Positions 2,644 to 63,482 of a stretch of DNA of 64,000 nt are shown piece after piece (within the stretch, counting starts at the first letter, position 1; each line of letters opens with the position of its first letter). Under the pieces are notes generated by a model that saw nothing but the letters and a program-made list of their open reading frames with translations, had not been told where the DNA came from and searched no databases. The stretch covers positions 64,094 to 128,093 of the forward strand of contig JAOAGR010000002.1 in assembly GCA_026415655.1 (NCBI GenBank). Reading direction: 5' to 3'. Position numbers and translations under genes: made by a program. This DNA comes from Candidatus Dojkabacteria bacterium (lineage in GTDB: Bacteria > Patescibacteriota > Dojkabacteria > JAOAGR01).

Positions 2644-3540
2644 TTAGTCTGCATTTTTTATCATAAAATCTATTACCCTCTCTGCTATTTCTTTTCCAGC
2701 TGCTTTTGATATACCTTCCAGTCCTGGAGTACGATTTGCTTCTATTACATAAAACTTGCCGTATTTTGTGACCAATATATCTACACCAGATACTAAAAGT
2801 TCACAAGCTTGTGCAGCTTTTATAGCAGCTTGTTTTATTTCTTCTGAGGGATCAAATTTTTCTACACTACCTCCTAATGAAAAATTAGCTCTAAAATCGC
2901 CTTCTCTAGGTATTCGACGCATACAACCTATGTATTCATCACCAGCAATGATGATTCTCAGATCGTATTGATAATCCACTACTTCTTGAAGTAAAAACGC
3001 TGAAATTTTCTTTTCGTATTGAATAAGAATATTTTGAATGTCTTCAAGGCTATTTACTTTAAAGACTCTCGAACCTTGTCCAGTATTGGTTTGCTTCATA
3101 ATTAGAGGAAATCCTAATACACCACGATTTAGATATTCTTCTAGTTGTGACATTCTCAAAAATAAAAAGGTTTTAGGTACAGGTAAACCAGCAGAAGCAA
3201 GTTTTATCATATCTGCCCTTTTATTGATAAGATAATTTACTTTAGTCAAGTTATTATCAAATACTTTGATTCCGTTTCTACGACAATATTTGATAAGTTC
3301 TTTGGCTGTAGGTACACTGGAAAATCCTGATCTAGATATGACTATATCTACAAGATCCTTGTTTAATAATTTATCATCAAAATAAAATCTTACATTATCG
3401 GTTTCTATTTCTATATGCATTTTTCCAGGTTCAAGTATTATGACTTCAGATACGTCAGGATGTTTATAAAGTGCTTCCAATTCTGCTTTTTCTTCGTCTT
3501 TTACAGTGACTGTTTTATAAAGACCTACTTTTAATTTCAT
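2644..3540 (-). CDS. rimK: RimK-family ATP-grasp alpha-L-glutamate ligase
   Basis: 298 aa. 'DLRIIIAGDEYIGCMRRIPREGDFRANFSLGG', 'VSGVDILV' and 'VIEANRTPGLEGISKAAGKEIAE' align closely with E. coli RimK as I remember it (EGDFRSNLHRGG, VAGVDIL, EVNASPGLEGIEKTTG). Confidence 0.85.
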   Translation of the reverse strand: MKLKVGLYKTVTVKDEEKAELEALYKHPDVSEVIILEPGKMHIEIETDNVRFYFDDKLLNKDLVDIVISRSGFSSVPTAKELIKYCRRNGIKVFDNNLTKVNYLINKRADMIKLASAGLPVPKTFLFLRMSQLEEYLNRGVLGFPLIMKQTNTGQGSRVFKVNSLEDIQNILIQYEKKISAFLLQEVVDYQYDLRIIIAGDEYIGCMRRIPREGDFRANFSLGGSVEKFDPSEEIKQAAIKAAQACELLVSGVDILVTKYGKFYVIEANRTPGLEGISKAAGKEIAERVIDFMIKNAD

Positions 3541-3582
3541 AGTGTGATAATTATAATTCTAAAAATATATTTTTACGATACC

Positions 3583-4521
3583 ATGTCTAATAAAAAGTTC
3601 TGTATCTTTGGTCCTAGTTATAAAGGTGAAAGATCGCGTTCTATACATCTTATTTATGATGCGGCAAAAAGGATGGGATTGGATGTATATGTTTTACCAA
3701 AACGTAAATTATTAGGTTATATAGATGAAAATGGTATATTTAAATTCAGATCCCTAGATCCTGATATTGTTTTAGACGAGATAGATGTTTTTTATTTTCG
3801 TATGGTTACGGGTATTATTGATGGTAGGACTAAGGCAAGGTATAGGATTTTTCCTGAGATGATTACTTTTGCAAAATATTTGCATTTTCAACTTGGCAAG
3901 AAGGTATATGACTCTTTTCTTTTAAGGCCTGATCCTAACTTTACAAAAATTACTAATATGTATTTATTATCCCAGAATGGTATACCAAATATACAAACGT
4001 GGTTTTTTCTAAACAAAAAACAGGTACTTAAACATTTACATTTCATTAAGTTTCCTATCATAATAAAACCAGCAAATGGTACACAGGGTAGGGGAGTCAA
4101 AAGATTTGATACTAAAGAAGAATTTATTGAATATTTGAAGAATGAAGAAAGTATAATTTTCTATCCTAATATCATCCAAACAGCAATAGAAAATGATGGA
4201 GATTATAGACTTGTTGTAATAGGTGATCAGGTAGTGGCTGCACTGTGGAAAAAGCGCGATCCAAATAAAATAGTTGCAAATATGAGTCAAGGAAATAATG
4301 CAATACCTATCAAACCCGATAAAGAACTCGAAGAACTAGCAGTAAAGTCAGCAAAAATACTTGGAATAGATTTTGCAGGTGTTGATATTATCGAAGATAA
4401 AATTACAGGAAAAAGATATGTTTTAGAGGTAAATTTGTCACCGCAGATATTTTATAGTACAAAGTATAGCAATGTAAGTATTGCAGAGGAATTTGTCAAA
4501 TTTATCATTGAGAAGTCATAA
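3583..4521 (+). CDS. Second, more divergent RimK-like ATP-grasp ligase
   Basis: 'GDYRLVVIGDQVVAALWKKRDPNKIVANMSQGNNA', 'FAGVDII' and 'YVLEVNLSPQ' follow the ATP-grasp/RimK C-terminal pattern. The ORF-track start at 3544 is a GTG abutting the divergent gene, so the ATG at 3583 (MSNKKF...) is preferred. Confidence 0.7.
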   Translation: MSNKKFCIFGPSYKGERSRSIHLIYDAAKRMGLDVYVLPKRKLLGYIDENGIFKFRSLDPDIVLDEIDVFYFRMVTGIIDGRTKARYRIFPEMITFAKYLHFQLGKKVYDSFLLRPDPNFTKITNMYLLSQNGIPNIQTWFFLNKKQVLKHLHFIKFPIIIKPANGTQGRGVKRFDTKEEFIEYLKNEESIIFYPNIIQTAIENDGDYRLVVIGDQVVAALWKKRDPNKIVANMSQGNNAIPIKPDKELEELAVKSAKILGIDFAGVDIIEDKITGKRYVLEVNLSPQIFYSTKYSNVSIAEEFVKFIIEKS

Positions 4522-4541
4522 ATAAATTCATACAAAATTTG

Positions 4542-5072
4542 TTATAGATAATAAACTGATATTTCTGATCTTGGTACAGTATTGAGAATATCCGATGTCC
4601 TATGATTTAATCCTCTGTAGTTAACCAATACAAATGTATAAGTATTTCTATTGTCTAATAGTTTGTGAACTGCACTAAATAGCGTGGTGGTTTGTTCTGG
4701 AGTTAATTTAGGAATCCATGTTTGTGACTGTTCTCCAAAATATTCCATTGAGTCATGTGTCAGGTTAAAACCAGTTTCATTTGGCAGCGGTTGTCTATTT
4801 AAGTTGTTCAAATCGACATAATGTTGATGTACACCACTTAGCCTTGGGAATCTTCCTGCTCTATTTGGCTCTATACACCGATGTGGTATCACCAATATAT
4901 TAACTTGTCCTTTGTTAGTACTAGAAAATTCTTTGTATAATATCAGAGCAGTTTTTGAATCTTGCTTTCTATAATTGATGTTGAATATATAATACATGGT
5001 TATGTACATACAAAGTGTAACATATAAAAATTTATTTGTCGTTGAACATCCTCTATTATTTGGTACCGACAA
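4542..5072 (-). CDS. Hypothetical protein with weak HIT-like nucleotide hydrolase/transferase resemblance
   Basis: 'NILVIPHRCIE' resembles the HIT 'LVIPKKHI' segment. 'GVHQHYV' is only a partial H-x-H-x-H motif. The 5' end overlaps the start of the next + gene by 77 bp, so the true start is probably internal. Confidence 0.3.
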   Translation of the reverse strand: MSVPNNRGCSTTNKFLYVTLCMYITMYYIFNINYRKQDSKTALILYKEFSSTNKGQVNILVIPHRCIEPNRAGRFPRLSGVHQHYVDLNNLNRQPLPNETGFNLTHDSMEYFGEQSQTWIPKLTPEQTTTLFSAVHKLLDNRNTYTFVLVNYRGLNHRTSDILNTVPRSEISVYYL

Positions 5073-6429
5073 GAAGTATCTGTGTAAGTTTCATAAACAT
5101 AAACTGATTTTTTTACGTGCGGTTTTGAGAGCAAAGTATGATGAGTATCTCAATAAATTTGGACCAGATAGAGTCAAATATATTGAGTTTCATGAATATG
5201 ATGATGAATCTTTTTTTGCTAGATTAGCATCTCAAAGGTTAGAATATGAAGACACAGTTGATTTTGAACTAGAGCGAAGATTAAGGTTTTATGCAAAAAA
5301 ATATTGTATTGAACTAGTCAAGAGACCTAATCCATCATTTATTACGTCTGAATCTGATATCGAGGATTACCTCAATACCACAAATAATAAAAAATTTTTC
5401 CTTACTCATTTTTATATTTGGCAGAGGAAACGGCTAGGATTGCTTATGGACGGTCAAAAACCGCTCGGTGGCAAATGGACTTTTGATCAACAGAATAGAA
5501 AGAAAATCCCTAAAAATATTGATTTGCCCAGACATCTGAAACTAGAAATAAATAAATATATCGAAGAGGCAAAAACCTATGTACAAAAATATTTTTCTGA
5601 TAATCCCGGTGATATAGACAACTTTGGTTATGCTGTCACCAGAGAAGATGCGTTGAGAATATTAGATTATTTTTTTGAATACAATATACAAAGTTTCGGA
5701 CCGTATCAGGATGCTATCGATACACGAGATGATTATTGGTTTCATTCGGTTATTTCACCTTATCTAAATATAGGGTTGATCACGATACAAGATGTATTGA
5801 ATAGACTTAGTCAATATTTTGACATCAGATACATTGCTTCATTTGAAGGTTTCCTACGGCAAATCATTGGTTGGCGAGAATTCATACGAATGGTCTACCT
5901 CAAGAAGGGAGTAAAAGTCAGAAATGGTAATTTTTTTAATCATAAAAATAAGCTACCCAAGTTTTTTTATACAGGTGATTCAGGGATTATACCACTTGAT
6001 GATGTAATAAAAAAAGTCAATAAAATAGCTTATGCTCATCATATAGAGAGGCTTATGATATTAGGTAATTTCATGTTGCTAATGGAGGTGGATCCCGATG
6101 AGGTGTATCGCTGGTTTATGGAGATGTTTATTGATGCTTATGACTGGGTGATGGTGCCCAATGTGTATAGTATGAGTCAATATGCTGATGGAGGATTAAT
6201 CACTACAAAACCTTATTTTTCTGGTTCAAATTATATACTTAAAATGTCAAATTATAAAAAAGGAGAATGGTGTGATATCTGGGATGGATTGTTTTGGAGA
6301 TTCGTATACAAAAATAAAGAATTTTTATCTAAAAATATACTAGTAGGAGCGATAACCAGACGCGATATCAATCTGGTCAAAGATAAAATTGTGAAGGCAG
6401 AAAGATTTCTGGCTAAATGTTATAGTTAG
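4996..6429 (+). CDS. Cryptochrome/photolyase-related protein (deoxyribodipyrimidine photolyase-related, COG3046-like)
   Basis: 477 aa. 'GGKWTFDQQNRKKIP' and the overall length/arrangement match my memory of the DPRP family. The start is uncertain because of the overlap with the upstream minus ORF. Confidence 0.5.
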   Translation: MVMYIQSVTYKNLFVVEHPLLFGTDKKYLCKFHKHKLIFLRAVLRAKYDEYLNKFGPDRVKYIEFHEYDDESFFARLASQRLEYEDTVDFELERRLRFYAKKYCIELVKRPNPSFITSESDIEDYLNTTNNKKFFLTHFYIWQRKRLGLLMDGQKPLGGKWTFDQQNRKKIPKNIDLPRHLKLEINKYIEEAKTYVQKYFSDNPGDIDNFGYAVTREDALRILDYFFEYNIQSFGPYQDAIDTRDDYWFHSVISPYLNIGLITIQDVLNRLSQYFDIRYIASFEGFLRQIIGWREFIRMVYLKKGVKVRNGNFFNHKNKLPKFFYTGDSGIIPLDDVIKKVNKIAYAHHIERLMILGNFMLLMEVDPDEVYRWFMEMFIDAYDWVMVPNVYSMSQYADGGLITTKPYFSGSNYILKMSNYKKGEWCDIWDGLFWRFVYKNKEFLSKNILVGAITRRDINLVKDKIVKAERFLAKCYS

Positions 6430-6491: not shown

Positions 6492-7034
6492 TTAAATGAT
6501 TTCGATTTTTTGACGGATCTTATCTGATTGAACAGGAAAAACAAACATAGGGGATTTGGGGTTAAAGGTGTTAATTATGTATTTGGGCTTCGTGTCAATT
6601 ATATTGTCTAGAAAACTGATTACCATTTTCTCATCTGTATAACCAGGTGTGTTTAGTGGATATTGGTAGACGTATTTATCCATACTCACACGTTTTGAGA
6701 AGAAGAATACTGATCCTTCAGCTCCCCATATAAGGATTCGGTCATGCAGTTCCGTAATTCTTACGATTTCATCGACAATAGTGGTTTTGATATTTATCTT
6801 ATGTAGTTCATTAATATAGGAAAGATAATTTTGGACATTAAGTAAAAATATTATCCCAATAATACTAATGCTCAGAAAGAATTTTGTGGTGACTTTATTC
6901 CTATCAATTTGAGATAATATATTATGATATATTTCTGATAATGTTTTTGCGGTAAGTATAGTAAATGTCGGTATCAAAACCATATAATAGTGATAAAATG
7001 CTCGGTCCGAAAGAGATATAAGCATTAGTTCCAC
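6492..7034 (-). CDS. C-terminal portion of the same GT39-like glycosyltransferase, separated by one in-frame TAA (possible pseudogene or split gene)
   Basis: Starts at GTG 7034-7032, exactly one codon after the TAA of the upstream ORF and in the same frame. Two further TM helices are followed by a soluble domain. The combined length of about 480 aa is typical for this family. Confidence 0.45.
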   Translation of the reverse strand: MELMLISLSDRAFYHYYMVLIPTFTILTAKTLSEIYHNILSQIDRNKVTTKFFLSISIIGIIFLLNVQNYLSYINELHKINIKTTIVDEIVRITELHDRILIWGAEGSVFFFSKRVSMDKYVYQYPLNTPGYTDEKMVISFLDNIIDTKPKYIINTFNPKSPMFVFPVQSDKIRQKIEII

Positions 7035-7037
7035 AGG

Positions 7038-7940
7038 TTAATTTATTAGGGATAAAAAGAGTATTGGGTGTCTAAATTTGTTTTTTAAAAAAAGTATATA
7101 CAAAAATCCTGTTAAGGAGAGTAATAATATTCCGGTGTCTTGCATTCGCACTAGACCCACCAGTATAGGATAGGATCTAGATAACTCCTGTGTCTCTATA
7201 CTAGAATATACAAAGTTGAAATGAAAATTCGCATCGTAGTATTCATTTAAGGAATTGTGACTCAGAAAAAATAAGTGCCAAAAAATGAAATTCAGAAAAA
7301 CGCCAATTCCTATTGACCCAATTTGTAAGATAAATTCTTTTGCTGTTTGTTTATTGATTTTTGATAAGAATTGAAATAGGAAATACAGCCCCACAGCAAT
7401 CCATATACCAATCGCAGTTTGTTTGGTAAAGAACGCTAAACCACCTAAAATTCCAATCAAAAATAAAATTTTCTTATTTTTGTTATGCGAATATTTGTGA
7501 AAGAGATAGATTCCTAATACCTGAAACAAAATAGTATATTCTGTAGTAAGATTTCCGCCTTCTAGTGCAAAAAAGAGAGTTATTGATGCGATACATATTG
7601 CAATGAGAGAAGTTTGTTTATCAAATATCGTGCTAACTAATTTGTGTAATAGTATAAAAGAGCTAAAAATGAATATAAGTTGGATGATCCAGACACCCCA
7701 ATGTTCATTTATTAGCAGACCTAGCGCGTTTAGGTAAAATATTATAGGTGGTTTGTGATCCCATACGTCTCTGTAAGGGATTTCTCCCTCTAAGATACGC
7801 CATCCTATGTACATAAATAGACCAGAATCGCGCAAAGTGTGTGTCATGAAATTAGGGTGTAAGGGCATCATAACCATCATCGAAAATATAAAGATTAACA
7901 ACTTATCCCCAATATGGTTGATGATCTTTTTTATTTTCAT
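7038..7940 (-). CDS. Glycosyltransferase family 39/83 (PMT/ArnT-like) membrane protein, N-terminal transmembrane portion
   Basis: 300 aa and polytopic. 'EIPYRDVWDHKPPIIFYLNA' resembles the ArnT/PMT-type first-loop motif. It ends at TAA 7038-7040, in frame with the next ORF. Confidence 0.55.
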   Translation of the reverse strand: MKIKKIINHIGDKLLIFIFSMMVMMPLHPNFMTHTLRDSGLFMYIGWRILEGEIPYRDVWDHKPPIIFYLNALGLLINEHWGVWIIQLIFIFSSFILLHKLVSTIFDKQTSLIAICIASITLFFALEGGNLTTEYTILFQVLGIYLFHKYSHNKNKKILFLIGILGGLAFFTKQTAIGIWIAVGLYFLFQFLSKINKQTAKEFILQIGSIGIGVFLNFIFWHLFFLSHNSLNEYYDANFHFNFVYSSIETQELSRSYPILVGLVRMQDTGILLLSLTGFLYILFLKNKFRHPILFLSLIN

Positions 7941-11531: not shown

Positions 11532-12851
11532 TTGATCGTGGAAAAGACAGAATCAAAAGTAGGTAACTCACACCGAGGAAATGACGGAAGAGGAGGAATA
11601 TATAGTGTGGTTACTCCATTAAAACGTGTAGCACAGAGAATAACAAATTTTGTTTTATGTGCTCTTATTGGCTTATCCCCTATACATACTCCTGATGGAC
11701 TTCATGAACAGCCGGAAACGTCTGAACAGTATCTGTGTATACGAAATCCCTATTATAGTTATTTTGCGTATAATAGATTGGATCCCAGTCGACGATTTGG
11801 TGATACGGGGGAAATAGCGCAGTTTTCTCCACGTGATCAATATTTTAAAGCTGTTGCCGTAGTATGTGGTGTTATATTTTATGCAGTCATGCCAGACAAT
11901 CATAGTCTTGAAGAGTTAGAGGAAATGACATTGAGCTTCATGGAATCATTACCTTCTTCATTACGTAAAATAGCTTCAAGGGGAGAAAATATTTTTACAG
12001 ATTATGCCTCTACTAGGAGGTATGTTGGATTTCATAACGGTGGAGAAAATTACATTTATGTTTACGGAAAAGACTTTGTGGATAAAGCATCTGTGTTTGC
12101 AATTTTTGCTCACGAATTAGCTCATAGACTTCAAGAAACTAATGCAAGTACTCTTCAAGATTATAACAATCGAATGATAACTTATATGCAGGGATTAAAT
12201 TTAAATGGTGAGGAATATAGGGTCAGAGCTGGTCCTTATGTCCCGATTATTGATGCTGAATCGTACTATAAAGATTATTCCTTTCCAGAACAAACCGTCA
12301 ACCTCGAATTTGGCCCATATCTTATCCAAAATATGGCATACGCGATGTACCAGATTTTACAAACGAAGGAAGAAGGTATAAGTCAAGATGAGATCAAACG
12401 CGAAATAAGTAACGCTATGAGGAAGATTGCTGTCGATATCGTTTTTGGTGAATCGGGGGATTACAATAGAAAATTATCATCGTTACTTGCTATAATTGAG
12501 GCAGAAGAGTGGTTCAAAAATGAGGAAGAACCGGGGTGGAGACATGCATTTAATGCCTTGCGAAGAGGGATAATAGGAAACATTGTTATAGCATATCTGA
12601 ACGACGAGAAGAGTTGGAAACCGTACATTGAAGGTTTACGTAATACATTTCCGGACGTGTATGAAGGGCTAAAATCTGTGATTAGTCGTGCTGAAAATAG
12701 TGAGCAAAGGAGACCGCTGTTCAAACATGGACCTGATGCTCATGTCAGAAGAGATTATTATATGCCTCAGGCAGCTATGCAACGCCGAAATACCCGAATT
12801 ACGGAACTTCAGGGCGATAGAGGGTCACACAAATATACGAGTAGAGGGTAA
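11532..12851 (+). CDS. Putative zinc metalloprotease (HExxH) of unknown family, inside a compositionally atypical (GC-richer) islet
   Basis: 439 aa. 'FAIFAHELAHRLQE' contains HELAH. Local GC of about 40-45% contrasts with about 30% in the flanks. I recognise no other domain. Confidence 0.5.
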   Translation: MIVEKTESKVGNSHRGNDGRGGIYSVVTPLKRVAQRITNFVLCALIGLSPIHTPDGLHEQPETSEQYLCIRNPYYSYFAYNRLDPSRRFGDTGEIAQFSPRDQYFKAVAVVCGVIFYAVMPDNHSLEELEEMTLSFMESLPSSLRKIASRGENIFTDYASTRRYVGFHNGGENYIYVYGKDFVDKASVFAIFAHELAHRLQETNASTLQDYNNRMITYMQGLNLNGEEYRVRAGPYVPIIDAESYYKDYSFPEQTVNLEFGPYLIQNMAYAMYQILQTKEEGISQDEIKREISNAMRKIAVDIVFGESGDYNRKLSSLLAIIEAEEWFKNEEEPGWRHAFNALRRGIIGNIVIAYLNDEKSWKPYIEGLRNTFPDVYEGLKSVISRAENSEQRRPLFKHGPDAHVRRDYYMPQAAMQRRNTRITELQGDRGSHKYTSRG

Positions 12852-13841
12852 ATTTTAATAAGGTATTAGTCACATTAATTTCAGATAATCTGAATAGTTG
12901 TTGATTACTAATTTGAAGATACAAATATCACAAGACTATAGAGATATACTAGAGCCTTGAACATAGAAGAGTCAAAAGGGAGGGTATCAAAATACAACAA
13001 GAAAGTACGAGTATTACGGCATGAGGGTGCAGCATCAATACTGCAGATACGAAAGATACAGATGGTGTAGGTTGTAGCTGATAATTATAAGGATCAGCTG
13101 GTGATCGGATGATAGCTAATAAAAGATAGACGTTATAAGGAGCAATTTAATCAACGATACAGATATATAGACATCGTTATTAATATGTGATATAATTACT
13201 ATACCATGACAGGAGCAAATACAGCATTCGGATTAAATTTGGAACTCGATAGTAGCCGTGCTGATACAGATGATAAGTATATAAGGCTACCAGATCTTTT
13301 GTATATTTTATTTGCAAGCTGTGTCGCTTCGGGTAATGGAGGTCCAACACTTTCTGATAACCCTTTCTATAGGGTGAATTCATGTGTTGAGGATGCCTTC
13401 AGAAATGGTGATTTTTGCCGTCGTTATCCTGATATAATGAGACCGGAAAGCATGCCCGTTGGGGCATTACTGGATGCCCTATCGGGTTTGGTATCAAGGC
13501 TCCGTCTCTCCTCACATCTCTTGATGCAAGGTGACATACAGGGAGTAGATAGTACTCCTTCAAGACAGAGGAGATCGAGCCGCACATGAGATGTTAGAAA
13601 TAACAGAAATGGTAGAACCTCTTTTATTTAAGTAAGAATTTGGTTCTAGTGCACACATACCACATGACCATGTGCATCAAACGGAGACAAAATACTCAAG
13701 TGATTAAGTATAGGTGCATCAACTAGCTAGGAATAAGCATATAAGCGTAAAGAGTGAATGTCTATCAATGTACTCAACATATTCTTCTCAAATCTTTATT
13801 TCTATTGTATACTCACGCAAGTAATATAATAAATACTCATT

Positions 13842-14186
13842 ATGAATACATTAGTGATATCAAAAGTAGAAGAGCCAAGATATAGACATAAGGATGTAGA
13901 CTTTAGAGTAGGAGATACTTTGAGACTAGGATTGAAAGTTAAAGATTCAAAGGAGGGAGAAAGAATACAGTACTTTCAGGGCATTTTGATTAGAGTATCT
14001 GGTTCAGGGCTTAGACAGACTCTTACAGTACGTAAAATCGGTGCCAATAGTATAGGTGTGGAAAAAATTATTCCACTACATTCACCAGTGCTTGATAGTA
14101 TAGAGGTTGTCAAGAGGTCCAAGGTTCGACGAGCTAGATTATATTATATGCGTGATAGAGTAGGTAAAAGTGCCTTAAACGTCTAA
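13842..14186 (+). CDS. rplS: 50S ribosomal protein L19
   Basis: 114 aa. 'FRVGDTLRLGLKVKDSKEGERIQYFQGILI...RKIGANSIGVEKIIPLHSP...RRARLYYMRDRVGK' is a typical L19. Confidence 0.9.
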   Translation: MNTLVISKVEEPRYRHKDVDFRVGDTLRLGLKVKDSKEGERIQYFQGILIRVSGSGLRQTLTVRKIGANSIGVEKIIPLHSPVLDSIEVVKRSKVRRARLYYMRDRVGKSALNV

Positions 14187-14223: not shown

Positions 14224-15510
14224 ATGTTTTTTTTGTATGTTATTCGATCTGTTGTTTTCATATTACGTAAATTCAAAATAACCTCTTCAACAGCTTTTCC
14301 TGGTCTTTTAGTGGAAAAATATTTTCCTCATTTGGTGCCTGTTTTATTAAACAAGTTGAAAGATGTGATCGTTATCACAGGTACAAATGGAAAGACAACA
14401 GTTGCTAGTGCTATACATTATATTCTTGAAAATAGTGGGAAAAAATGTTTCATCAATGCTAGTGGCTCAAACATGCTGAGGGGTATTCTTTCTCATATCA
14501 TAATTAATCTTGATAATAAGCTAAATCTTGAGCATGATTATTCTATTTTAGAGCTTGAAGAGGCTACTTTTCCTAAATTAGTGAAATATATAAAACCTAA
14601 ATTAGTGATTGTTACAAATATTTTTCGTGATCAGCTAGATGCATATGGAGAGATAGATAAGACTTTTGCTTATATCAAGGACGGAATTGAAAATTCTAAT
14701 AATCCCACTGTTATATTAAACGCTTCTGATCAGAGACTTGTTCATCTGTACAAGTGTTCGAATCGAGTCATTTCCGTATCTGTGTCAGAAGAGGTTAAGA
14801 AATATTTATTTTTAGAGAGGTATTATGAAAAACCTCAAGAGTTAGATATTCATCCTGATGTTTTTATCCATAATATTGAACAAAAAGATATTGATCATAC
14901 ATTGATCACATTTGAATATAAAAATGAAAAATATGATCTAGAGACTAGCATTCTGGGTTTACATAACGCAATAAATCTGATTTTTGCCTGGTTGGCAGTT
15001 GTACATCTATTAGGTTTTAATGATACCGACAATAAAAGATTTTTAGATATCTTGGGGGATTTCAAGCCTGCTTTTGGTCGTGGTGAGAAAATAAATATTT
15101 CTAATACTGAATTTATCCTAATGCTTGTAAAAAATCCTGCTGGCATGAATATGAATCTCTATTCCTTATCTGATATTATTTCCGCAAATGATGCAATTTT
15201 GTTTATTTTAAATGATAATATAGCTGATGGACGTGACGTATCTTGGATATGGGATTGTGATTTTAATATTGTCAATCGTTTTCAGAACAATGTAATTTTG
15301 GTATCAGGGATTAGAAAAGATGATATAGCACTTAGGATTAGCTATGAAGTAAAAGACAAAGAAATAAAAGTCTTTGATGATTATGAAAAAATATTTGATC
15401 ATATTATGCAAAAAGAATATAAAAGAGTCTTTGTATTGCCAACATATACTGCAATGCTCAGTGTTAGAAAATTTTTATATAGTAAATTAGGTATAAAACA
15501 AAATTTATAA
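14224..15510 (+). CDS. murT: Lipid II isoglutaminyl synthase, Mur-ligase-like subunit
   Basis: 'IVITGTNGKTTVASAIHYIL' is the Mur ligase P-loop. The 428-aa length and the position immediately upstream of a GatD homolog are as in Gram-positive murT-gatD. Confidence 0.8.
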   Translation: MFFLYVIRSVVFILRKFKITSSTAFPGLLVEKYFPHLVPVLLNKLKDVIVITGTNGKTTVASAIHYILENSGKKCFINASGSNMLRGILSHIIINLDNKLNLEHDYSILELEEATFPKLVKYIKPKLVIVTNIFRDQLDAYGEIDKTFAYIKDGIENSNNPTVILNASDQRLVHLYKCSNRVISVSVSEEVKKYLFLERYYEKPQELDIHPDVFIHNIEQKDIDHTLITFEYKNEKYDLETSILGLHNAINLIFAWLAVVHLLGFNDTDNKRFLDILGDFKPAFGRGEKINISNTEFILMLVKNPAGMNMNLYSLSDIISANDAILFILNDNIADGRDVSWIWDCDFNIVNRFQNNVILVSGIRKDDIALRISYEVKDKEIKVFDDYEKIFDHIMQKEYKRVFVLPTYTAMLSVRKFLYSKLGIKQNL

Positions 15511-15514
15511 CACT

Positions 15515-16291
15515 ATGAAAAAGATAAGGATTAATCATCTGTATTCTCAGTCAATGAACATTTATGGTGATATAGGTAATATTAAAGCTCTCTTACACAT
15601 CCTGGATTTACATAACATCCCTTTTGAGATATTTTCAACGGAAATTGGAGATAATAAAGTAAAAGAGGCAGATATATATTTTTTAGGTGGGGGACAAGAC
15701 AAAGACCAATATAGTGTATTTAAAGATCTATTAAGACATAAATCTTTTATATCTGATGAGGTCAAAAAAGATAAGGTGTTTTTACTTATTTGTGGTGGTT
15801 ATCAACTCTTTGGAAAATTTTTTTTAGATGCTGAGGGAAATTTTATTGAAGGGTTGGGTATTTTAGATATCGAGACAAAAGCACCAGATAATAAAGTGAC
15901 ATCAAGATGCATTGGTAATATAGTAGTAAAATTAAATCCTGATTTTATTCAGAGATTTGATATAGATACTTCATTTTCAGATTATATAGTAGGTTTTGAA
16001 AATCATGGCGGACAAACATTTTTCAAAAATGATTCGTTGATTTTTTTAGGTGATGTTATACAAGGATTTGGTAATAACAGTTTTGAAAAAAAAGAAGGAT
16101 GCAATTATAAAGGAATAATAGGTACTTATATGCATGGGTCATTCTTGCCAAAAAATCCTCATATAACCTATGGAATCATCAACCGTGCATTACATAATCA
16201 AAATATCAATGCCATAAAAATGGATAAAACAAAACTAATTTACGAATCAAAAGCTCATAAATACATCCTTAATAAATACCAGATTGTTTAG
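15515..16291 (+). CDS. gatD: Lipid II isoglutaminyl synthase, glutamine amidotransferase subunit
   Basis: 'NIYGDIGNIKAL', 'IYFLGGGQDKDQ', 'LLICGGYQLFGK' (catalytic Cys), 'GLGILD', 'GFENHGGQTF' and 'LPKNPHIT' match S. aureus GatD closely as I remember it. Confidence 0.85.
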   Translation: MKKIRINHLYSQSMNIYGDIGNIKALLHILDLHNIPFEIFSTEIGDNKVKEADIYFLGGGQDKDQYSVFKDLLRHKSFISDEVKKDKVFLLICGGYQLFGKFFLDAEGNFIEGLGILDIETKAPDNKVTSRCIGNIVVKLNPDFIQRFDIDTSFSDYIVGFENHGGQTFFKNDSLIFLGDVIQGFGNNSFEKKEGCNYKGIIGTYMHGSFLPKNPHITYGIINRALHNQNINAIKMDKTKLIYESKAHKYILNKYQIV

Positions 16292-37825: not shown

Positions 37826-40471
37826 ATGGATAATTTTATTAATGAAAATTTTAGTAAAAATGCCATCCAAGCAATCAAAACAGCTATGGATGTATGCGTA
37901 AGAGTAGGAGATTCTTCACTCATGATTGAGCATATTTTTGTTGGGATTTTGCATGTTAAAGAAGGTATTGGAGCAAAGATACTCTCAAGGTTAGGTCTCG
38001 ATCCTGATGCTACTATTACGAGTATAGAACATGAATTGTCCAAAAGAATAGAAGTAGACAATCAGGACAAAAAGGTAGATGTGATTCAGATTACGCTTTC
38101 TGAGAGTGTCAAAGAACTTCTAAGAAGGTCTTATGAAGTAGCATCAGAGATGAATCATCCTTATGTGGGTACTGAGCATATATTGCTGTCTATATTAAAA
38201 TTTTCTGATAATCCGTTTGTACAAGAATTGCATAGATTAGGTATCACCTATGAACGTATTCAAAAAGAGATTGAAGAGTTTGTGACATACCCGGTTTATA
38301 ACCGTGTCAACAATAATTCACAGGTTGATAAACCTGAAAATCAAGACAATAAACAAGTTCCACCAACGCCAAGTATGCCACCATTTATACCGGGAATCGG
38401 AAATATCAATCCTAAGGCTTTATTAAACGATATGATGAAGATGTTTGGAGGTGGGCCAGGCGGATATAGTCCTGAAGGGTCATCTTTTCTAGAAACATAT
38501 GGAAGAAATCTCACTTTAGAAGCTAAAAAAGGTAAATTAGATCCTGTGATTGGTAGAGAGGAAGAAATTTTGAGAGTAATGCAAGTATTAGCTCGCAGGA
38601 CCAAAAATAATCCGATACTACTTGGAGATGCGGGTGTGGGAAAGACTGCTGTGGTTGAGGGGCTAGCTCAATATTTGATCTCTGAAGAGGCATCTCCTGT
38701 GCTTTCTAATTTTGAAATATGGTCCATTGATATTTCATCAATTATTGCTGGATCACAATTGCGTGGTGATGTGGAGGGTAAAATATTAGAGCTCATAAAG
38801 GAAGTTACATCAAAAGGCAATATTATCCTTTTCATAGATGAAATTCATACGATTATGGGGGCTGGTGCAACAACAAATAGTTCATTGGACGTGGCAAATA
38901 TATTAAAACCTGCTCTTGCAAGGGGTACTCTCAGATGTATAGGTGCAACAACCGTTGATGAATACAAACAACATTTTGACAATGATCCAGCTCTGCAACG
39001 TAGATTTATGCCTGTGTACATAGAAGAAATGAGTCCAGAGGATACTTTTGCCATTTTAAAAAATCTAAAGCCAATTTATGAAAATTATCACAACGTACAG
39101 ATAGAAGATAGTGCCCTATGGGCGGCTATAAATCTCACAAATAGATTTATTACAGATAGATATTTACCAGATAAGGCCATCGATGTCATAGATGAGGCTT
39201 GTTCTAAAAATAAAATCGAAAGAATAAAGATACCTAAGAAATTTAGAGAATTAAATGCGCAATTGGCAAATGTACGTTTAGCAAAGTATGATGCTGAAAA
39301 GAATGGTGACATAGATAAGGCAGCAGAACTTTTAAATCAAGAAAAAGAACTTACAAAAAAGATCGAGTCAGAAGCTAAGAAAATGCAGAAAAAATGGAAC
39401 ACGCAAAATAAATCTATAACTGTAAAAGATATAAGAAATATCATTGCAAAATGGAGTAAAGTACCATTGGCTACAGTGAGTGATGATGTGGAAACTTTAA
39501 TCAAAAAATTAGAAAAAGACCTAAGAGACAATGTCATTGGTCAGGACCACGCAGTGGATTTAGTTGTTAGTGCTATCAAAAGATCAAAAGCTGGATTGGC
39601 AGGTTATGATAGACCTTTAGCATCATTTCTTTTTGTTGGTGCCACAGGTGTTGGAAAAACAGAATTAGCAAAACAACTTGCAAAATCACTTTTTGGCTCT
39701 AAAGATGACCTTATACAGGTGGATATGAGTGAGTTTATGGAGTCTCATAGTGTATCAAAGCTTATCGGTTCGCCACCTGGATATGTAGGTTATGATCAGG
39801 GAGGACAATTGACAGATAAAGTACGTGAAAACCCATTTAGCGTGGTGCTATTTGATGAGATAGAAAAGGCGAGTCCTGATGTGTTAAATATACTTTTGCA
39901 AATTTTGGACGAAGGTAAGCTGACTGACAGCAAGGGAAGAACAGTTAATTTTAAAAATACCATAATCATAATGACCTCAAATATCGGTGCCGAGTTTGTA
40001 GGTAAAGATTCAAAAGTTGGTTTTTATCTTAAAAAAAAGGAAGAAACAAAAACTAATAAATATGAAAAAGCTTTGGCAGATATAAAAGAAAGAATTGTTG
40101 AAAGTTTAAAAGAATATTTGTCACCTGAATTTTTAAATCGAATAGATGATATTGTTGTATTTAGAGAATTAAATAAGTCAGATGTTGAAAAAATAACAAA
40201 ATTGCAACTTCAAAATCTTGCGAACAGATTGAAAAAAGAATTAAAAGTAGTTATTAAGAATTATGATTCACCTAAAATTGTTAAAGAAACAACGAGATTA
40301 GGCTATTCTGAAGAATACGGTGCACGTGAATTACGCAGAATTATTACATCCATGATTGAGACCAAAGTAGCTGATTTTATTATCAGCAAAAAATGGGATC
40401 CGGATGCTAAAAATGTTCTAAATATAAAGTTGCAAGTCAAAAACGGATCATTTATTGTAAGTGAAGCATAA
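37826..40471 (+). CDS. ClpC/ClpB-family AAA+ chaperone with ClpP-docking VGF loop and a Pro/Gly-rich insertion
   Basis: Clp_N repeats are present. Two Walker A motifs: 'LLGDAGVGKTAVVEGLA' and '[16 protein letters not shown]'. Short M-domain. 'KVGFYL' at 40016-40024 is an IGF-type ClpP loop. Insertion 'QVPPTPSMPPFIPGIGNINPKALLNDMMKMFGGGPGGYSPEGSS' lies after the N-domain. Confidence 0.85.
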   Translation: MDNFINENFSKNAIQAIKTAMDVCVRVGDSSLMIEHIFVGILHVKEGIGAKILSRLGLDPDATITSIEHELSKRIEVDNQDKKVDVIQITLSESVKELLRRSYEVASEMNHPYVGTEHILLSILKFSDNPFVQELHRLGITYERIQKEIEEFVTYPVYNRVNNNSQVDKPENQDNKQVPPTPSMPPFIPGIGNINPKALLNDMMKMFGGGPGGYSPEGSSFLETYGRNLTLEAKKGKLDPVIGREEEILRVMQVLARRTKNNPILLGDAGVGKTAVVEGLAQYLISEEASPVLSNFEIWSIDISSIIAGSQLRGDVEGKILELIKEVTSKGNIILFIDEIHTIMGAGATTNSSLDVANILKPALARGTLRCIGATTVDEYKQHFDNDPALQRRFMPVYIEEMSPEDTFAILKNLKPIYENYHNVQIEDSALWAAINLTNRFITDRYLPDKAIDVIDEACSKNKIERIKIPKKFRELNAQLANVRLAKYDAEKNGDIDKAAELLNQEKELTKKIESEAKKMQKKWNTQNKSITVKDIRNIIAKWSKVPLATVSDDVETLIKKLEKDLRDNVIGQDHAVDLVVSAIKRSKAGLAGYDRPLASFLFVGATGVGKTELAKQLAKSLFGSKDDLIQVDMSEFMESHSVSKLIGSPPGYVGYDQGGQLTDKVRENPFSVVLFDEIEKASPDVLNILLQILDEGKLTDSKGRTVNFKNTIIIMTSNIGAEFVGKDSKVGFYLKKKEETKTNKYEKALADIKERIVESLKEYLSPEFLNRIDDIVVFRELNKSDVEKITKLQLQNLANRLKKELKVVIKNYDSPKIVKETTRLGYSEEYGARELRRIITSMIETKVADFIISKKWDPDAKNVLNIKLQVKNGSFIVSEA

Positions 40472-42570: not shown

Positions 42571-42925
42571 ATCTCCAATAAATTATCTCTCTACCAATTT
42601 CAGCTATTAATGTCTCAAAATCATCTGTCTCCGGATCAAATAGTATTTCAAGAGTTGTATTATCTGTAAAAATGATCAGTATATAATCAGCGTGTATTTT
42701 GATTACATGATAGTTAAATTGATCAATAATTTCATTAATGACTTCAACTTTTCCATCGGCAAGTTTGGACACTTCATTTATATGAACTATTGTCAAATTA
42801 TCACCAAGTTCTTCTTTTAAGATGTTGTAAGCACTATTCATCATCTCCTCAATCTCTGACCAAACAACAACAACTTCTTTTGTAGACTCACATTTGTGCA
42901 GTTGATATGAAAATAATTTTCTCAT
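42542..42925 (-). CDS. Small single-Cys protein co-transcribed with sufS, a possible SufE-like sulfur acceptor
   Basis: 4-bp overlap with sufS. 'LHKCESTKEVVVVW' loosely resembles the SufE 'GCQSQVWL' region. Single cysteine. Weak. Confidence 0.3.
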   Translation of the reverse strand: MRKLFSYQLHKCESTKEVVVVWSEIEEMMNSAYNILKEELGDNLTIVHINEVSKLADGKVEVINEIIDQFNYHVIKIHADYILIIFTDNTTLEILFDPETDDFETLIAEIGREIIYWRFKKKPKISV

Positions 42926-44163
42926 CTGAATATTTTTTTAATTTCTTTTAATGCGTTAATAAATATATCTATTTCTTCCATAGTATTGTAGAAGCATAAA
43001 GATGCTCTTGCAACAGAATTTACTTTTAGTTCGTTCATAATAATCTGTGTGCAATTATGTCCTGTGCGGATTGCTATACCAAAATCATCAAGTATAGTCC
43101 CTACATCATGGGAGTGTACACCTTCAATATTAAATGAAAATATTGGTAAACGTTTCTTATGACTTTTTGACCCATAAAGTGTCAAAAAATTAATATCTAG
43201 TAACTTTTCCAGCATATATTTTGTAAGTTCTTCTTCGTATACCTTTATATTCTCAACACCGATTGATTGGATAAATTTTATTGATGCGTCGAATGCTATT
43301 ACATCGGCTATATTTGGTGTGCCAGCCTCAAATTTATAGGGAATGTCAGCATAAGTTGTATTTTCTCGTGTTACGGTTTTTATCATATCGCCACCGCCCA
43401 TCAGGGGTGTCATTTCTTGTAATAGAGTTTTTTTTCCTATGAGTATTCCTACTCCTGTTGGTCCTAAACATTTGTGTGCTGAGAATGTAAAGAAATCAGT
43501 ATTAATTTGAGTTATATTAACATCAAAATGCCCACAAGCTTGAGCACCATCCACGATGATAATGGCATCGGGATTTTTTTGTCGGATTTTACGGATTATT
43601 GTTTCAACATCATTTATAGATCCAAAAGTATTTGAAACATAAGAGATGGAAACTATTTTTGTGTTTTGATCCACTTTGTCTACTAGATCATCTATATCAA
43701 TATAACCTTCATTTGTAAACTTAGCATATCTAGTCTCAAATTTGCGGTATTTTCTTAAAATCTGCCATGGAACTATATTAGAATGATGTTCAAGATCAGT
43801 AAGTACGATGTTACTTTCCTCTGTAATCAATTCTATACAACCATAAGCAACTATATTTATACTTTCAGTATCATTTTTAGTAAAAATTATTTCATATTCT
43901 TCAGATACATGAAGAAAATTTTTTATTGTATTGCGTACATTTTCATATTTTTCAGTTGCTTCTTGGGATAATGTGTGCACCCCCCTATGAATATTTGCAT
44001 TATAATTTTCATAATATTCGACTAAAGCATCTATCATTACTCTAGGCTTTTGTGTAGTTGCAGCATTATCAAAATATATTAAATTTTTGCCATTTATTTT
44101 TCTTTTAAGTATTGGAAACTGTTTGCGAATATCTGATACATTAAACATGTTATGATTATACAA
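42922..44163 (-). CDS. sufS: Cysteine desulfurase (class II, SufS/CsdA-like)
   Basis: 'NAATTQKPRVMIDALVEYYENYNANIHRGVHTLS', 'FSAHKCLGPTGVGIL' (PLP Lys) and 'RTGHNCTQ' (persulfide Cys), compared with SufS SGHKxxGPTG and RAGHHCA. Confidence 0.85.
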   Translation of the reverse strand: MYNHNMFNVSDIRKQFPILKRKINGKNLIYFDNAATTQKPRVMIDALVEYYENYNANIHRGVHTLSQEATEKYENVRNTIKNFLHVSEEYEIIFTKNDTESINIVAYGCIELITEESNIVLTDLEHHSNIVPWQILRKYRKFETRYAKFTNEGYIDIDDLVDKVDQNTKIVSISYVSNTFGSINDVETIIRKIRQKNPDAIIIVDGAQACGHFDVNITQINTDFFTFSAHKCLGPTGVGILIGKKTLLQEMTPLMGGGDMIKTVTRENTTYADIPYKFEAGTPNIADVIAFDASIKFIQSIGVENIKVYEEELTKYMLEKLLDINFLTLYGSKSHKKRLPIFSFNIEGVHSHDVGTILDDFGIAIRTGHNCTQIIMNELKVNSVARASLCFYNTMEEIDIFINALKEIKKIFR

Positions 44164-44168
44164 CGATT

Positions 44169-44939
44169 ATGCGCGGAAATATAAAAGCTCTTTTATTCTT
44201 CTTGCAGGATTATAATATAGATTTTGTTCAATATGATAAGAACTTCATTGAGGTAAAGTGTGGTTCCAAGAAGTTACTCTTTATCAACTGTCGTGTGCCT
44301 TTTAATGACCATTCAACATCTTCTCTTTTTACAGATAAGTATTTTACTTATCTATTTCTTAAAGATCACATAAAAATGCCAACTACACATTTTTATCTTG
44401 ATCCTTATATAGAAAAAAAATTCTCTAGATATAGAAAGTTTAAAGATTACCAATCAATAATAGACGACATAAACTCACATTTTACTATTCCTTTAGTATT
44501 GAAGCCCAATAGACTATCAAGGAGAAGAAACTTCTTTTTGATAGATGATTCGGCAAAAATAGAAATAGCCGTTCGACGGATTTTTGATCACAAAAGTAAA
44601 AATTATGATTATGGTATGATATCTCAAGAATTTGTTAATATAAAGGAAGAGTATAGAGTAATTGTTATAGCTAACGAAGTTAAACTTGTATATAAAAAGT
44701 GGAGATTTATCAAGATCCATGAGAGGAATATTTTAGACAGAATAGAAACAGTTGTTCAGAACATTACAAAATTTGTAGATCTAAATTTTGTAGGTATAGA
44801 TATAGTTAAAAATAAAGACGAGGAGATATTTTTATTAGAAATAAATAGTGCACCCGATTTTGGACCGTACATCAAACATAATAATATTCAAGATATAGTA
44901 GAAATTTACAAATTTGCTTTTGAGAAATATGTATTTTAA
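44169..44939 (+). CDS. Stand-alone ATP-grasp domain protein (short)
   Basis: 'PLVLKPNRLSRRRNFFLID', 'QEFVNIKEEYRVIVIANEVKLVYKK' and 'VGIDIVKNKDEEIFLLEINSAPDF' follow the ATP-grasp pattern (VlKP..g..G.gv; Rv.vi.g.vv; vlEvN..Pg). 256 aa. Confidence 0.5.
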   Translation: MRGNIKALLFFLQDYNIDFVQYDKNFIEVKCGSKKLLFINCRVPFNDHSTSSLFTDKYFTYLFLKDHIKMPTTHFYLDPYIEKKFSRYRKFKDYQSIIDDINSHFTIPLVLKPNRLSRRRNFFLIDDSAKIEIAVRRIFDHKSKNYDYGMISQEFVNIKEEYRVIVIANEVKLVYKKWRFIKIHERNILDRIETVVQNITKFVDLNFVGIDIVKNKDEEIFLLEINSAPDFGPYIKHNNIQDIVEIYKFAFEKYVF

Positions 44940-44940
44940 A

Positions 44941-45918
44941 TTATCTGATCGCTTTTTCGAGCACGGGTTTTATACCGATCTCATAATTTTGATTTCCTAC
45001 GATTTTTGCCAACAAATTATATGTTTTGGTTTGGCTGGTTTTGCCATCCAAAGTTTTTGTTGTTACCTCTTTAATTTCGTATAAATAAAAAGTAGGTGTT
45101 CCGGTAGTACCCAAAATGTCACTACTGAACCCAGAAATTTTTCTGACGTGCTCTTCATATTGGCCCGAATTTATACATGATTCAAATTTATTAATATCTA
45201 ATGTTTTGCTTGATTTTATGCTATTAAAATATTCTTTTGCCTTATTTAGATCAAATGCCGTAAAATTTTTATAATATATTGTTTTTAATTCAAAAAATGC
45301 TTTAGCATCCTGTTCTCCAGCACAATATAAAGATGAATGCTTTTTTATATCGCCTAAGCCTTGTTTGTCTATAAAAATATAGGTGAGTTTGCCTGTGATC
45401 AAAAAATCACGGGAGAGTTTTTCAAAACTAGAGTCCCTGTTTTGCTGATATCCATGAAACTTTGCACAATTTATACAATCTAAATCGCTGTTTTCAACAA
45501 ATATATATTTTGCGTTTACGTTGTAAGTAAGTATCGGCTGGCCTTCTAATACACTATTTGTAGAGTCATAGTTTTGTGGTATTTTAAAAGAGTAAAATGC
45601 GTATTTTGGTAATATATAAATTAAATTTTTATATATAACATTATGTAAATTGAAAGCAAAAATAAATGTAACCGATACAATGAGACTGCTAACAATAATA
45701 CTTATGGATACTAATAAATTAAAATTGTACTTAAATTTTTTTAATTTACTTTCAATTCGTGGAAATTTTAAATCAAAACTCTGGAATCTCAGTAGAAGAT
45801 TGTGTATTTGTGATTGTATTCGTTTGATTAGAAGTGGTATCGATCTTTTCATGATATAAATATTTTCTATTATATACTGTTTTAAGAAGAATTTCATTAT
45901 AGGGTTGAGGAAGTACAA
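44941..45918 (-). CDS. Membrane-anchored DsbA-like thiol:disulfide oxidoreductase
   Basis: N-terminal TM segment. 'LDCINCAKFHG' is a CxxC motif. 'TTGTPTFYLYE' is a cis-Pro loop like DsbA's 'V.GTPtf'. Confidence 0.55.
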   Translation of the reverse strand: MYFLNPIMKFFLKQYIIENIYIMKRSIPLLIKRIQSQIHNLLLRFQSFDLKFPRIESKLKKFKYNFNLLVSISIIVSSLIVSVTFIFAFNLHNVIYKNLIYILPKYAFYSFKIPQNYDSTNSVLEGQPILTYNVNAKYIFVENSDLDCINCAKFHGYQQNRDSSFEKLSRDFLITGKLTYIFIDKQGLGDIKKHSSLYCAGEQDAKAFFELKTIYYKNFTAFDLNKAKEYFNSIKSSKTLDINKFESCINSGQYEEHVRKISGFSSDILGTTGTPTFYLYEIKEVTTKTLDGKTSQTKTYNLLAKIVGNQNYEIGIKPVLEKAIR

Positions 45919-63041: not shown

Positions 63042-63482
63042 ATGATAAAATTATTACATATGAGACTAAGCTCGGGGTTGAACAGATTTTTACTTTTTTT
63101 ATTAATTAATTTCTTATCATTTTTAATAATTATTCCTGATGTATTGGCACAAAGTAATAATACAACCAGTCAATGCCCGGCTAACGCTATTTACAATCCT
63201 TTAGATCCTAATTGTGATAGAAACCTTAATCTAGGTATAATATTTAATGTAATACTTAATGTAGTTCCATTCATAGTAGTACTTATAGCAGTCGGATTTT
63301 TTGCTTGGGGGGCAATAAAAATTATTATTGCTGGTGAAGACAGCAACGCAAGAGAAAAAGGTATAGAAACCATGAGAAATGCGATAATAGGGTTGGTAGC
63401 GTTCTTTCTCATTGGGATGATTCTTTGGATTGTATCATTAGTGACCGGTTCTGATATAGCATCGTTTATTTTGGGTAATTAA
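63042..63482 (+). CDS. Small secreted two-TM protein, possible TrbC/VirB2-like pilin
   Basis: 146 aa. Long signal peptide ending '..DVLAQ'. Cys pair (QCPANAIYNPLDPNCD). Two hydrophobic helices separated by 'AGEDSNAREKGIETMRN'. Architecture as in T4SS pilins. Confidence 0.4.
   Translation: MIKLLHMRLSSGLNRFLLFLLINFLSFLIIIPDVLAQSNNTTSQCPANAIYNPLDPNCDRNLNLGIIFNVILNVVPFIVVLIAVGFFAWGAIKIIIAGEDSNAREKGIETMRNAIIGLVAFFLIGMILWIVSLVTGSDIASFILGN

Follow-up and report, generated by a model that had tools for sequence, protein, structure and literature searches.

On which substrate do two RimK-type ligases act when no gene for one stands beside them? The question is raised by a divergent pair of ATP-grasp genes, here called ligase A and ligase B, in a 64-kb stretch of DNA from Candidatus Dojkabacteria bacterium (contig JAOAGR010000002.1, positions 64,094 to 128,093; G+C content about 30%), which is referred to below as the window. 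Judged from sequence and gene order, many Patescibacteria conserve a membrane-linked peptide-ligase module of four genes, and A and B are one half of it in rearranged form. With a probability of roughly 0.55, the two enzymes would carry out two successive steps in the ATP-dependent, non-ribosomal assembly of an acidic oligo- or poly-amino acid, in a system resembling Rlo and Rim. The pair is laid out as follows (aa, amino acids; nt, nucleotides).

Ligase A: 2644-3540, minus strand; intact RimK-family ATP-grasp gene with an ATG start, 298 aa
Shared divergent control region: 3541-3582, both directions; 42 nt, holding the palindrome-like ATAATTATAAT
Ligase B: 3583-4521, plus strand; intact RimK-family ATP-grasp gene, 312 aa

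The divergent pair and its place in the RimK superfamily

The two genes stand head to head, and their products share 27% identity over 232 residues (expectation value, E, 4e-23). The mechanical open reading frame (ORF) of ligase B, 3544-4521, opens at a GTG at 3544; the true start was placed at the ATG at 3583, since all close homologues are 312 aa long, start at the equivalent ATG and have the N-terminus MxxKKFCIFG. Within the spacer, ATAATTATAAT gives TATAAT whichever strand is read, and 38 of the 42 nt (0.90) are identical in the related contig L001. Promoter-like hexamers were seen around the spacer at 3544-3571 (plus) and 3589-3562 (minus), while a promoter scan of the region gave a hexamer count no higher than chance. 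The intergenic gaps around the pair measure 162, 42 and 20 nt and are therefore too small for a precursor or another small gene.

Both ligases matched the Pfam RimK family (PF08443; cut-off 21 bits), A with 123 bits (E 1.1e-35) and B with 94 bits (E 1.4e-26). On the rimK_fam model TIGR00768, A scored 138 and B 126.5 bits, both narrowly under the cut-off of 143.4. By these profiles they are members of the broad RimK superfamily, at the edge of the curated TIGR00768 subfamily. The rimK_fam profile aligns to nearly the full length of A and to B only from residue 122 onward. Among solved structures, the best relatives by sequence were E. coli and Pseudomonas RimK for A (E about 1e-20) and RimK enzymes for B (E 5e-14). 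An earlier note on this DNA had described two divergent RimK-family paralogues set back to back, one near-canonical and one divergent, with starts about 40 bp apart and with short ORFs that are merely antisense. This description proved sound: both proteins match PF08443 and each other, 42 nt were counted between the ATG codons, the unequal extent of the profile alignments makes the wording fair, and the short ORFs within the pair do lie antisense inside the two ligase genes.

The named enzymes of the superfamily were examined by scoring A and B on NCBIfam equivalog models against their curated cut-offs, with the following results in bits.

S6-glutamate ligase (NF007764/PRK10446): A 85.2, B 59.1; cut-off 331
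LysX (TIGR02144): A 99, B 105; cut-off 275.6
MptN: A 104, B 103; cut-off 350
CofF: A 82.5, B 50; cut-off 300
GAK-system ligase: A 78, B 38; cut-off 300
GRASP_SAV_5884 (TIGR04187): A 38, B 19; cut-off 350
MvdC (TIGR04185): A 19, B not listed; cut-off 425
Cyanophycin synthetase: A 30, B 57; cut-off 850; one ATP-grasp module in each ligase
N-acetylglutaminylglutamine amide (NAGGN) synthetase (TIGR03103): A 43 (E 2.5e-11); cut-off 569

On the first eight models the scores lie far under the cut-offs. Neither ligase belongs to the orthodox RimK clade, as is seen from the rounded 85 and 59 bits against 331 on NF007764, and the names S6-glutamate ligase, F420 ligase and LysX should be avoided in annotating the two genes.

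The homologues of ligase A numbered 150, with names from Patescibacteria only, and A was placed in an A clade of 40 loci. It carries the motifs VFDNN, GDFRANFSLGG and E-x-N-R-T-P-G, all three (the last in the family form E-x-N-[RH]-T-P-G) being invariant or nearly so in the family (alignment A2), and it retains an FR-x-N-x-x-x-GG loop like that of RimK. Ligase B belongs to a 'second-ligase' class and, within it, to a rare B clade, with nine full-length relatives in a collection of 5.8 billion sequences and one more in the metagenomes of the Joint Genome Institute (JGI). It has kept NDGDYR and E-V-N-L-S-P-Q, and its substrate loop reads VANMSQGN against FRSNLHRGG in RimK. All A-type ligases have Y-x-x-D-L-R and T-P-G, and all second ligases (clades R292, B, B' and R588) have NDGD-x-R and x-P-Q-[FWI].

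The ATP-grasp catalytic set, namely the nucleotide-binding Lys, the Arg of D-x-R, the Mg-binding Asp and E-x-N, is intact in both A and B, and none of these residues varies in alignments A1, A2 and A5 or in any clade of a 105-sequence alignment. In Pseudomonas aeruginosa RimK, the poly-Glu chain is held by S7, R8, S14, R64, S68, R189 and N262, of which R189 and N262 contact its last glutamate (PMC10092738). The D-x-R and E-x-N of A and B are the conserved equivalents of R189 and N262, and a further conserved arginine (R70 in A, R73 in B) may be equivalent to R64. The acidic-chain residues S7, R8 and S14 could not be placed in A and B because the N-terminal 30-120 residues of these two proteins have no sequence alignment to RimK; the alignment to solved RimK chains begins no earlier than residue 34 in A and residue 122 in B. 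Both ligases are under purifying selection, each with a conserved substrate loop of its own.

The predicted model of ligase B (predicted local distance difference test, pLDDT, 87) matched the folds of ArgX, RimK, LysX and PsnB with template modelling (TM) scores of 0.7-0.8 at about 20% identity. Since it superposed equally well on all of them, the fold of B cannot discriminate between substrates of RimK, LysX or graspetide type.

A conserved four-gene module in Patescibacteria

The earlier note had regarded the context of the pair as empty of rpsF, of a LysW-like carrier and of a precursor gene. As far as substrate genes in cis are concerned, this was borne out. Searching the window and 91 loci (about 1.3 Mb) by tblastn with an E. 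coli S6 query did not find rpsF; no acidic C-terminal tail was seen among all reading frames of at least 25 codons in the whole window; LysW-like carrier, LysY/Z/J/K and precursor peptide genes were absent from the window; and no conserved small ORF with an acidic tail occurred across 48 related neighbourhoods. The context itself is not empty, as the pair belongs to a conserved module of four genes.

The module emerged from two surveys. On the A side, species-representative genomes were seeded with the A family and ORFs were called and clustered anew, giving 48 Patescibacteria loci. The B-side survey was independent and covered metagenomes, with 40 loci of at least 6 kb in which the two partner genes were counted anywhere in the locus. 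These partners are a gene of the ATPgrasp_ST family (ST) and a gene for a seven-transmembrane (7TM) protein. A second RimK-like gene was found no more than two genes from A in 44 of the 48 A-side loci (33 on the same strand, 11 on the opposite one), an ATPgrasp_ST gene no more than three genes from A in 31, and a 7TM gene in at least 22. The corresponding B-side counts were 31/40 for ATPgrasp_ST and 27/40 for 7TM. The usual operon order is RloB-like 7TM, RloC-like ATP-grasp (ST), A and second ligase, and most B-side loci are alike in this respect. The genes of the operon overlap or nearly abut, as in L011, where a 4-nt overlap and a 3-nt gap were measured.

The ST protein scored 269-276 bits on TIGR02291, 'alpha-L-glutamate ligase-like protein' (hypothetical-equivalog cut-off 314), and 245 bits on Pfam ATPgrasp_ST. 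In Dojkabacteria and in the lineage of the window it is fused to a retropepsin-like domain; this C-terminal part of the 473-478-aa proteins matched Pfam Zn_protease with 41.5 bits (cut-off 27) and RloA3 and RimB weakly, carries the motif D-T-G-A (D-S-G-A in L033) and has no separate signal peptide. The 7TM protein matched Pfam 7TM_transglut with 84 bits (L017) and the last 200 positions of the RloB model with 54 bits; the transglutaminase-like part of RloB found no match in the 7TM proteins. The 227-aa 7TM protein of the window lineage has no Pfam match and is tied to the others by its position, by a visual likeness at the C-terminus and by falling into one BLAST cluster with the short 7TM proteins of Dojkabacteria.

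The missing half of the module in the window lineage was located on contig L093. This contig reaches 9.9 kb further to the left than the window, and over the 9,049 bases that the two share they disagree at 11. There, 2.5-4.6 kb ahead of the first base of the window, the 7TM gene (227 aa, intact though missed by the gene caller) precedes the ST-retropepsin gene (473 aa). The full order is 7TM, ST-retropepsin, three genes for surface or membrane proteins of 335, 534 and 387 aa, a Xer-like recombinase, tRNA-Arg, A and B. All four core genes hence lie within about 9 kb, with the 7TM and ST half outside the window, about 6 kb to the left of the pair. The intervening features that fall inside the window are the following.

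Surface or membrane protein gene: 134-1297; 387 aa, the last of the three in the L093 series
Xer-like recombinase gene: 1399-2271; 290 aa, with Phage_int_SAM_1 and Phage_integrase domains
tRNA-Arg: 2405-2481

On comparison with L001, a more distant relative than L093, A and B were found to be 0.84 and 0.85 identical in nucleotides and 92% and 89% identical in amino acids, while neighbouring genes showed nucleotide identities of 0.78-0.79. Within the region compared, tRNA-Arg apart, no protein-coding gene is better conserved than these two.

The module varies among lineages. In L005 (4482-6248) and L016 (5997-7775), and also in L021, L036, L120, L138 and L140, the second ligase has some 300 aa fused to its C-terminus, without a solid family match (DUF3541, 18.5 bits, is under its cut-off); in L005 the fused gene is followed by genes for a 243-aa membrane protein and for a 282-aa protein without a family match. 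The operon ends with a GNAT (Acetyltransf_3) gene with a long C-terminal extension in Dojkabacteria (L033, L047, L048, L050, L054 and L056) and with a class-I glutamine amidotransferase gene in L011 (8641-9540; OZ246419.1). Several Woesebacteria loci have a SAM-binding-like GxGxG protein, read by eye, after the operon and a small HTH_17 protein before it. A typical Patescibacteria operon was also found in metagenome-assembled genomes (MAGs) of small size titled 'uncultured Gammaproteobacteria' or 'uncultured Pseudomonadales' (L017, L018, L021, L022, L070 and others), which are binchicken assemblies such as the 810-kb OZ246419.1. The titles of these MAGs look unreliable, because the operon is of Patescibacteria type and NCBI assigns one of the proteins to a Patescibacteria group bacterium.

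Proposed function and alternatives

Systems that combine an ATP-grasp amidoligase, a 7TM protein and a retropepsin are known from genome analysis and, only recently, from Pseudomonas genetics. In a 2009 survey of amidoligases, Iyer and colleagues reportedly predicted from genomes systems made of an ATP-grasp amidoligase and a membrane protein of 7TM/transglutaminase type. The RloABC system of P. aeruginosa consists of the secreted retropepsin RloA, the 7TM protein RloB with an inactive transglutaminase, and the ATP-grasp enzyme RloC; both RloA and RimB cut polyglutamate, rloB and rloC belong to the same pathway as rloA, and this pathway affects osmotic tolerance, cell shape and biofilm, with antibiotic tolerance also among the Pseudomonas phenotypes (PMC11957051). 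Poly-alpha-glutamate, whether free or attached to S6, is the product of RimK, which is bound and regulated by RimB (PMC11957051).

The partners of A and B are Rlo-like, comprising a RloC-family ATP-grasp enzyme (TIGR02291), a membrane protein that matches the 7TM part of RloB and a retropepsin domain of RloA/RimB kind. Unlike RloABC, the Patescibacteria module has two, sometimes three, extra RimK-type ligases; its retropepsin, where present, is fused to a cytoplasmic ATP-grasp enzyme, whereas RloA is secreted; the likeness of its 7TM protein to RloB is limited to the 7TM part; and all scores lie under the curated Rlo cut-offs. With RimK and the RimABK system, A and B share the Pfam family, the three-domain ATP-grasp fold, the catalytic Lys, D-x-R, Asp and E-x-N, the FR-x-N-x-x-x-GG loop of A and the presence of a RimB-like retropepsin in the system. 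They differ in an identity of only about 20-30%, an equivalog score that is far too low and an N-terminal acceptor-binding region that cannot be aligned, and the Patescibacteria ligases come in twos or threes, linked with a 7TM protein and a RloC-like enzyme. Cyanophycin synthetase CphA1 also uses an ATP-grasp domain in the template-free synthesis of a poly-amino acid, and the action of several ligase activities on one polymer is an analogy drawn here; CphA1 is, however, one polypeptide of about 900 aa that also has a Mur-like ligase domain, while A and B have 298 and 312 aa.

If A and B do assemble an acidic poly-amino acid, each of them would activate a carboxylate as an acyl-phosphate and then attach an amino acid, in keeping with the chemistry of LysX/ArgX, in which formation of the acyl-phosphate is followed by that of the amide. 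The two would perform different steps, either priming and elongation or the addition of two different residues, because their substrate loops differ and are separately conserved. Without any genetic template, they would build an acidic oligo- or poly-amino acid of the poly-glutamate type; this product might be trimmed by the retropepsin domain and coupled to the membrane or the cell surface by the 7TM protein. In the lineage of the window, the module would have been broken up and the ligase pair turned head to head round the conserved 42-nt region. A more far-reaching proposal, in which three ATP-grasp ligases form a template-free line for a novel hetero-oligomeric or branched acidic poly-amino acid that the 7TM protein hands to the surface, is put forward tentatively, with odds well short of even; such a product would be a relative of cyanophycin or of capped polyglutamate.

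Several points weigh against the preferred assignment. The substrate loop of ligase B is without the Phe-Arg and Gly-Gly of RimK, and 'glutamate' is for this reason a guess where B is concerned. The nearest solved folds of B (ArgX, RimK, LysX and PsnB) all use protein or peptide substrates, and therefore modification of a protein tail fits equally well. Overall identity of B is 24% to the R292 class and 24% to A; as these values are equal, B can be taken as the orthologue of the usual second ligase only by two short motifs and by where its gene sits. In the window lineage, the three surface/membrane genes, the recombinase gene and tRNA-Arg stand between one half of the module and the other. 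Finally, in the clade nearest to the window (L004, L005, L007 and L013-L016) no ST or 7TM gene was found within three to four genes of A, so that the linkage of the module is loose where it matters most.

Modification of S6 or of another protein tail in the manner of Rim, with the ST-fused retropepsin as an eraser like RimB for RimK in Pseudomonas, is a possible alternative of rather low probability. It would agree with RimK enzymes being the best solved sequence relatives of both ligases, with the score of A barely below the rimK_fam cut-off (138 against 143.4 bits) and its retained RimK-like loop GDFRANFSLGG, with the RimB-like retropepsin within the system, RimB being known to bind and regulate RimK (PMC11957051), and with the nearest folds of B, all of which work on protein or peptide termini. 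The S6-ligase equivalog, however, is widely missed (85 and 59 against 331 bits), the N-terminal acidic-chain residues S7, R8 and S14 cannot be placed, rpsF was not found in the window or the 91 loci with the E. coli S6 query, and the conserved 7TM protein and the extra ligases, which S6 modification does not need, are left unexplained. A soluble small molecule is an unlikely product: A and B would then be L-amino-acid ligases making a di- or tripeptide or a capped acidic compound, for example an osmolyte of the type of NAGGN, N-acetylaspartylglutamate (NAAG) or beta-citrylglutamate, and the membrane protein would be left without a part to play. In mammals, NAAG and beta-citrylglutamate are made by the RimK-like enzymes RIMKLA and RIMKLB. 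Capping or amidation is hinted at by the accessory GNAT genes in Dojkabacteria and the class-I glutamine amidotransferase gene in L011, A matches the NAGGN synthetase model TIGR03103 weakly (E 2.5e-11), and Pseudomonas Rlo mutants are impaired under osmotic stress (PMC11957051). The match, however, amounts to 43 bits against a cut-off of 569, both accessory genes are lineage-specific and not present at the window locus, and the 7TM gene is among the most consistent linked partners.

The presence of small membrane proteins close to the module in part of the loci leads to a further explanation, namely that the ligases decorate or process surface proteins encoded alongside, such as pilins of the type IV secretion system (T4SS). 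About 18 of the 40 metagenome loci have an array of 4-7 paralogous genes (105-140 aa) that directly adjoins the 7TM gene on its upstream side and runs in the divergent direction; three representatives were tested and all match T4SS_pilin/TrbC-VirB2 (examples of the lineage are L096, L137, L143 and L160). The three surface/membrane genes between the module halves in the window lineage point the same way. The arrays, however, are confined to one lineage whose ST proteins are 59-95% identical to each other, and with so narrow a lineage inherited synteny suffices to account for the adjacency; none was found in the first 91 loci, including the 80 from species-representative genomes, and the pilin genes of the window itself lie at about 63.0-64.0 kb, 58 kb off the pair. 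This explanation is accordingly given very little credence. Biosynthesis on a LysW carrier by LysX/ArgX, or maturation of a graspetide as a ribosomally synthesized and post-translationally modified peptide (RiPP), both of which the earlier note had brought up, can be set aside almost entirely. LysX and ArgX are among the best structural matches of the B model (TM 0.75-0.82), the fold of PsnB is similar, and adjacent ATP-grasp genes recall the paired maturase genes of microviridin clusters (MdnB/MdnC). The LysX scores (99/105 against 275.6 bits), however, are about one third of the cut-off, those for GRASP_SAV_5884 (38/19 against 350) and MvdC (19 against 425) are near noise, and graspetide maturases form side-chain lactone or lactam rings rather than extending a chain. 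The window has no LysW-like gene, Lys/Arg pathway gene (LysY/Z/J/K) or precursor gene, and neither a LysW-like gene nor a small ORF with an acidic tail was found conserved in the 48 related neighbourhoods.

Surrounding genes and wider meaning

Three further features of the window concern the pair or the explanations discussed above.

Orphan gene: most likely 4542-4997, minus strand; 151 aa, convergent on ligase B
Third RimK/R2K-like ATP-grasp gene: 44169-44939, plus strand; 256 aa, matching Pfam RimK (8e-8) and R2K_2 (9e-7)
T4SS_pilin (TrbC/VirB2-like) gene: 63042-63482, plus strand; a similar second frame at about 63700-64000 runs to the window end

The ATG of the orphan gene overlaps that of a divergent DPRP (photolyase-related) gene in the sequence CATG (4995-4998). 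Three true relatives were found among 1.84 billion representatives; identity to the counterparts is 34-40% (34% to L001), against 89-92% for the flanking ligases. Profile searches gave no family match, and the fold model is mediocre, with only weak matches of PH/PTB kind. It is a real, fast-evolving gene, and its apparent link to the ligases is one of position only, in four closely related syntenic genomes. A convergent ORF had earlier been described as weakly HIT-like; the convergent gene stands, while a kinship to HIT found no support, as no family matched and the model is weakly PH-like.

The third ligase lies 40 kb from the pair, between genes for a SufS-like aminotransferase (42922-44163, minus) and a Thioredoxin_4 membrane protein (44941-45918, minus). 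It is 27% identical over 252 residues (E 1e-9) to the R295 ligase of L011, and ligases of this type come after the second ligase in the L011 and L041 operons. It may be a dispersed component of the A/B system, a link that we infer.

Other candidates were tried and dropped. 'Family X', a suspected conserved small protein encoded between A and B in the distant loci L004, L005, L007 and L008, was considered as a substrate, but its similarities did not go beyond E 0.002-0.03 in a tiny database, and a phmmer search added no members. PADLOC defence models gave zero matches for A, B, the orphan, the third ligase and the 387-aa membrane protein, and all phage matches to A were at about 30% identity or lower; an origin in a defence system or a phage was rejected. 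An integrated element at tRNA-Arg was likewise rejected: a search for an att-like direct repeat of the tRNA end came up empty, the recombinase is Xer-like and its position is kept in relatives.

Contig L092 (ERZ3623746) is a mosaic with respect to the window strain (L093). Over some 12 kb leftward from window position 2100 or so, identity is about 99.95%; it falls sharply inside the recombinase gene to 80-87% for the next 7 kb or so (the tRNA spacers, A, B, the orphan, DPRP and the glycosyltransferase gene PMT_2) and then rises to 94-98%. Either the strains exchanged the ligase segment by recombination, or the metagenome assembly is chimeric. The DPRP gene (4996-6429, plus) is a single ORF of 477 aa, and in L001 (11411-12840) it was called as two, of 328 and 125 aa. 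The PMT_2 gene (6492-7940, minus) has one in-frame TAA at 7035-7037 and is a single 507-aa gene in L001; the split is called identically in L093, and the gene may be a pseudogene or carry a strain-specific nonsense mutation. Further on, at 14224-16291 (plus), a MurT-like Mur ligase gene is followed by a gene for a GatD-like amidotransferase of CobB/CobQ type, with the ribosomal protein L19 gene (13842-14186) just upstream of the former; in Gram-positive bacteria the MurT/GatD pair amidates the peptidoglycan stem peptide. Three stretches of 2 kb (12001-14000, 38001-40000 and 52001-54000) have a G+C content of 0.36-0.375 against about 0.30 and a strongly positive AT skew. No rRNA or other RNA families were found in them, and the stretch at 12001-14000 overlaps a 439-aa ORF (11532-12851) with a weak match to the metallopeptidase family DUF6782.

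In the literature searched, the papers found did not mention RimK in the context of the candidate phyla radiation (CPR) or Patescibacteria, and the version of the system with two or three added RimK-type ligases, its occurrence in Patescibacteria and its split head-to-head form are undescribed there. Patescibacteria have tiny genomes and little biosynthetic capacity, yet many of them keep the system with three or four ligase genes; an important function is indicated, because such small genomes retain it and the ligases are the best-conserved protein-coding genes in the region compared here. Should the line of three ligases prove true, it would be of consequence for these ultra-small bacteria, either in their envelope or in their attachment lifestyle, and would offer a possible evolutionary link between Rim, which modifies the ribosome, and Rlo, which is concerned with envelope stress. 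The enlarged Patescibacteria version provides a second, simpler set of proteins for identifying the product and, since ligases of RimK and RloC type share one operon in it, may reveal how the Rim and Rlo systems are related.

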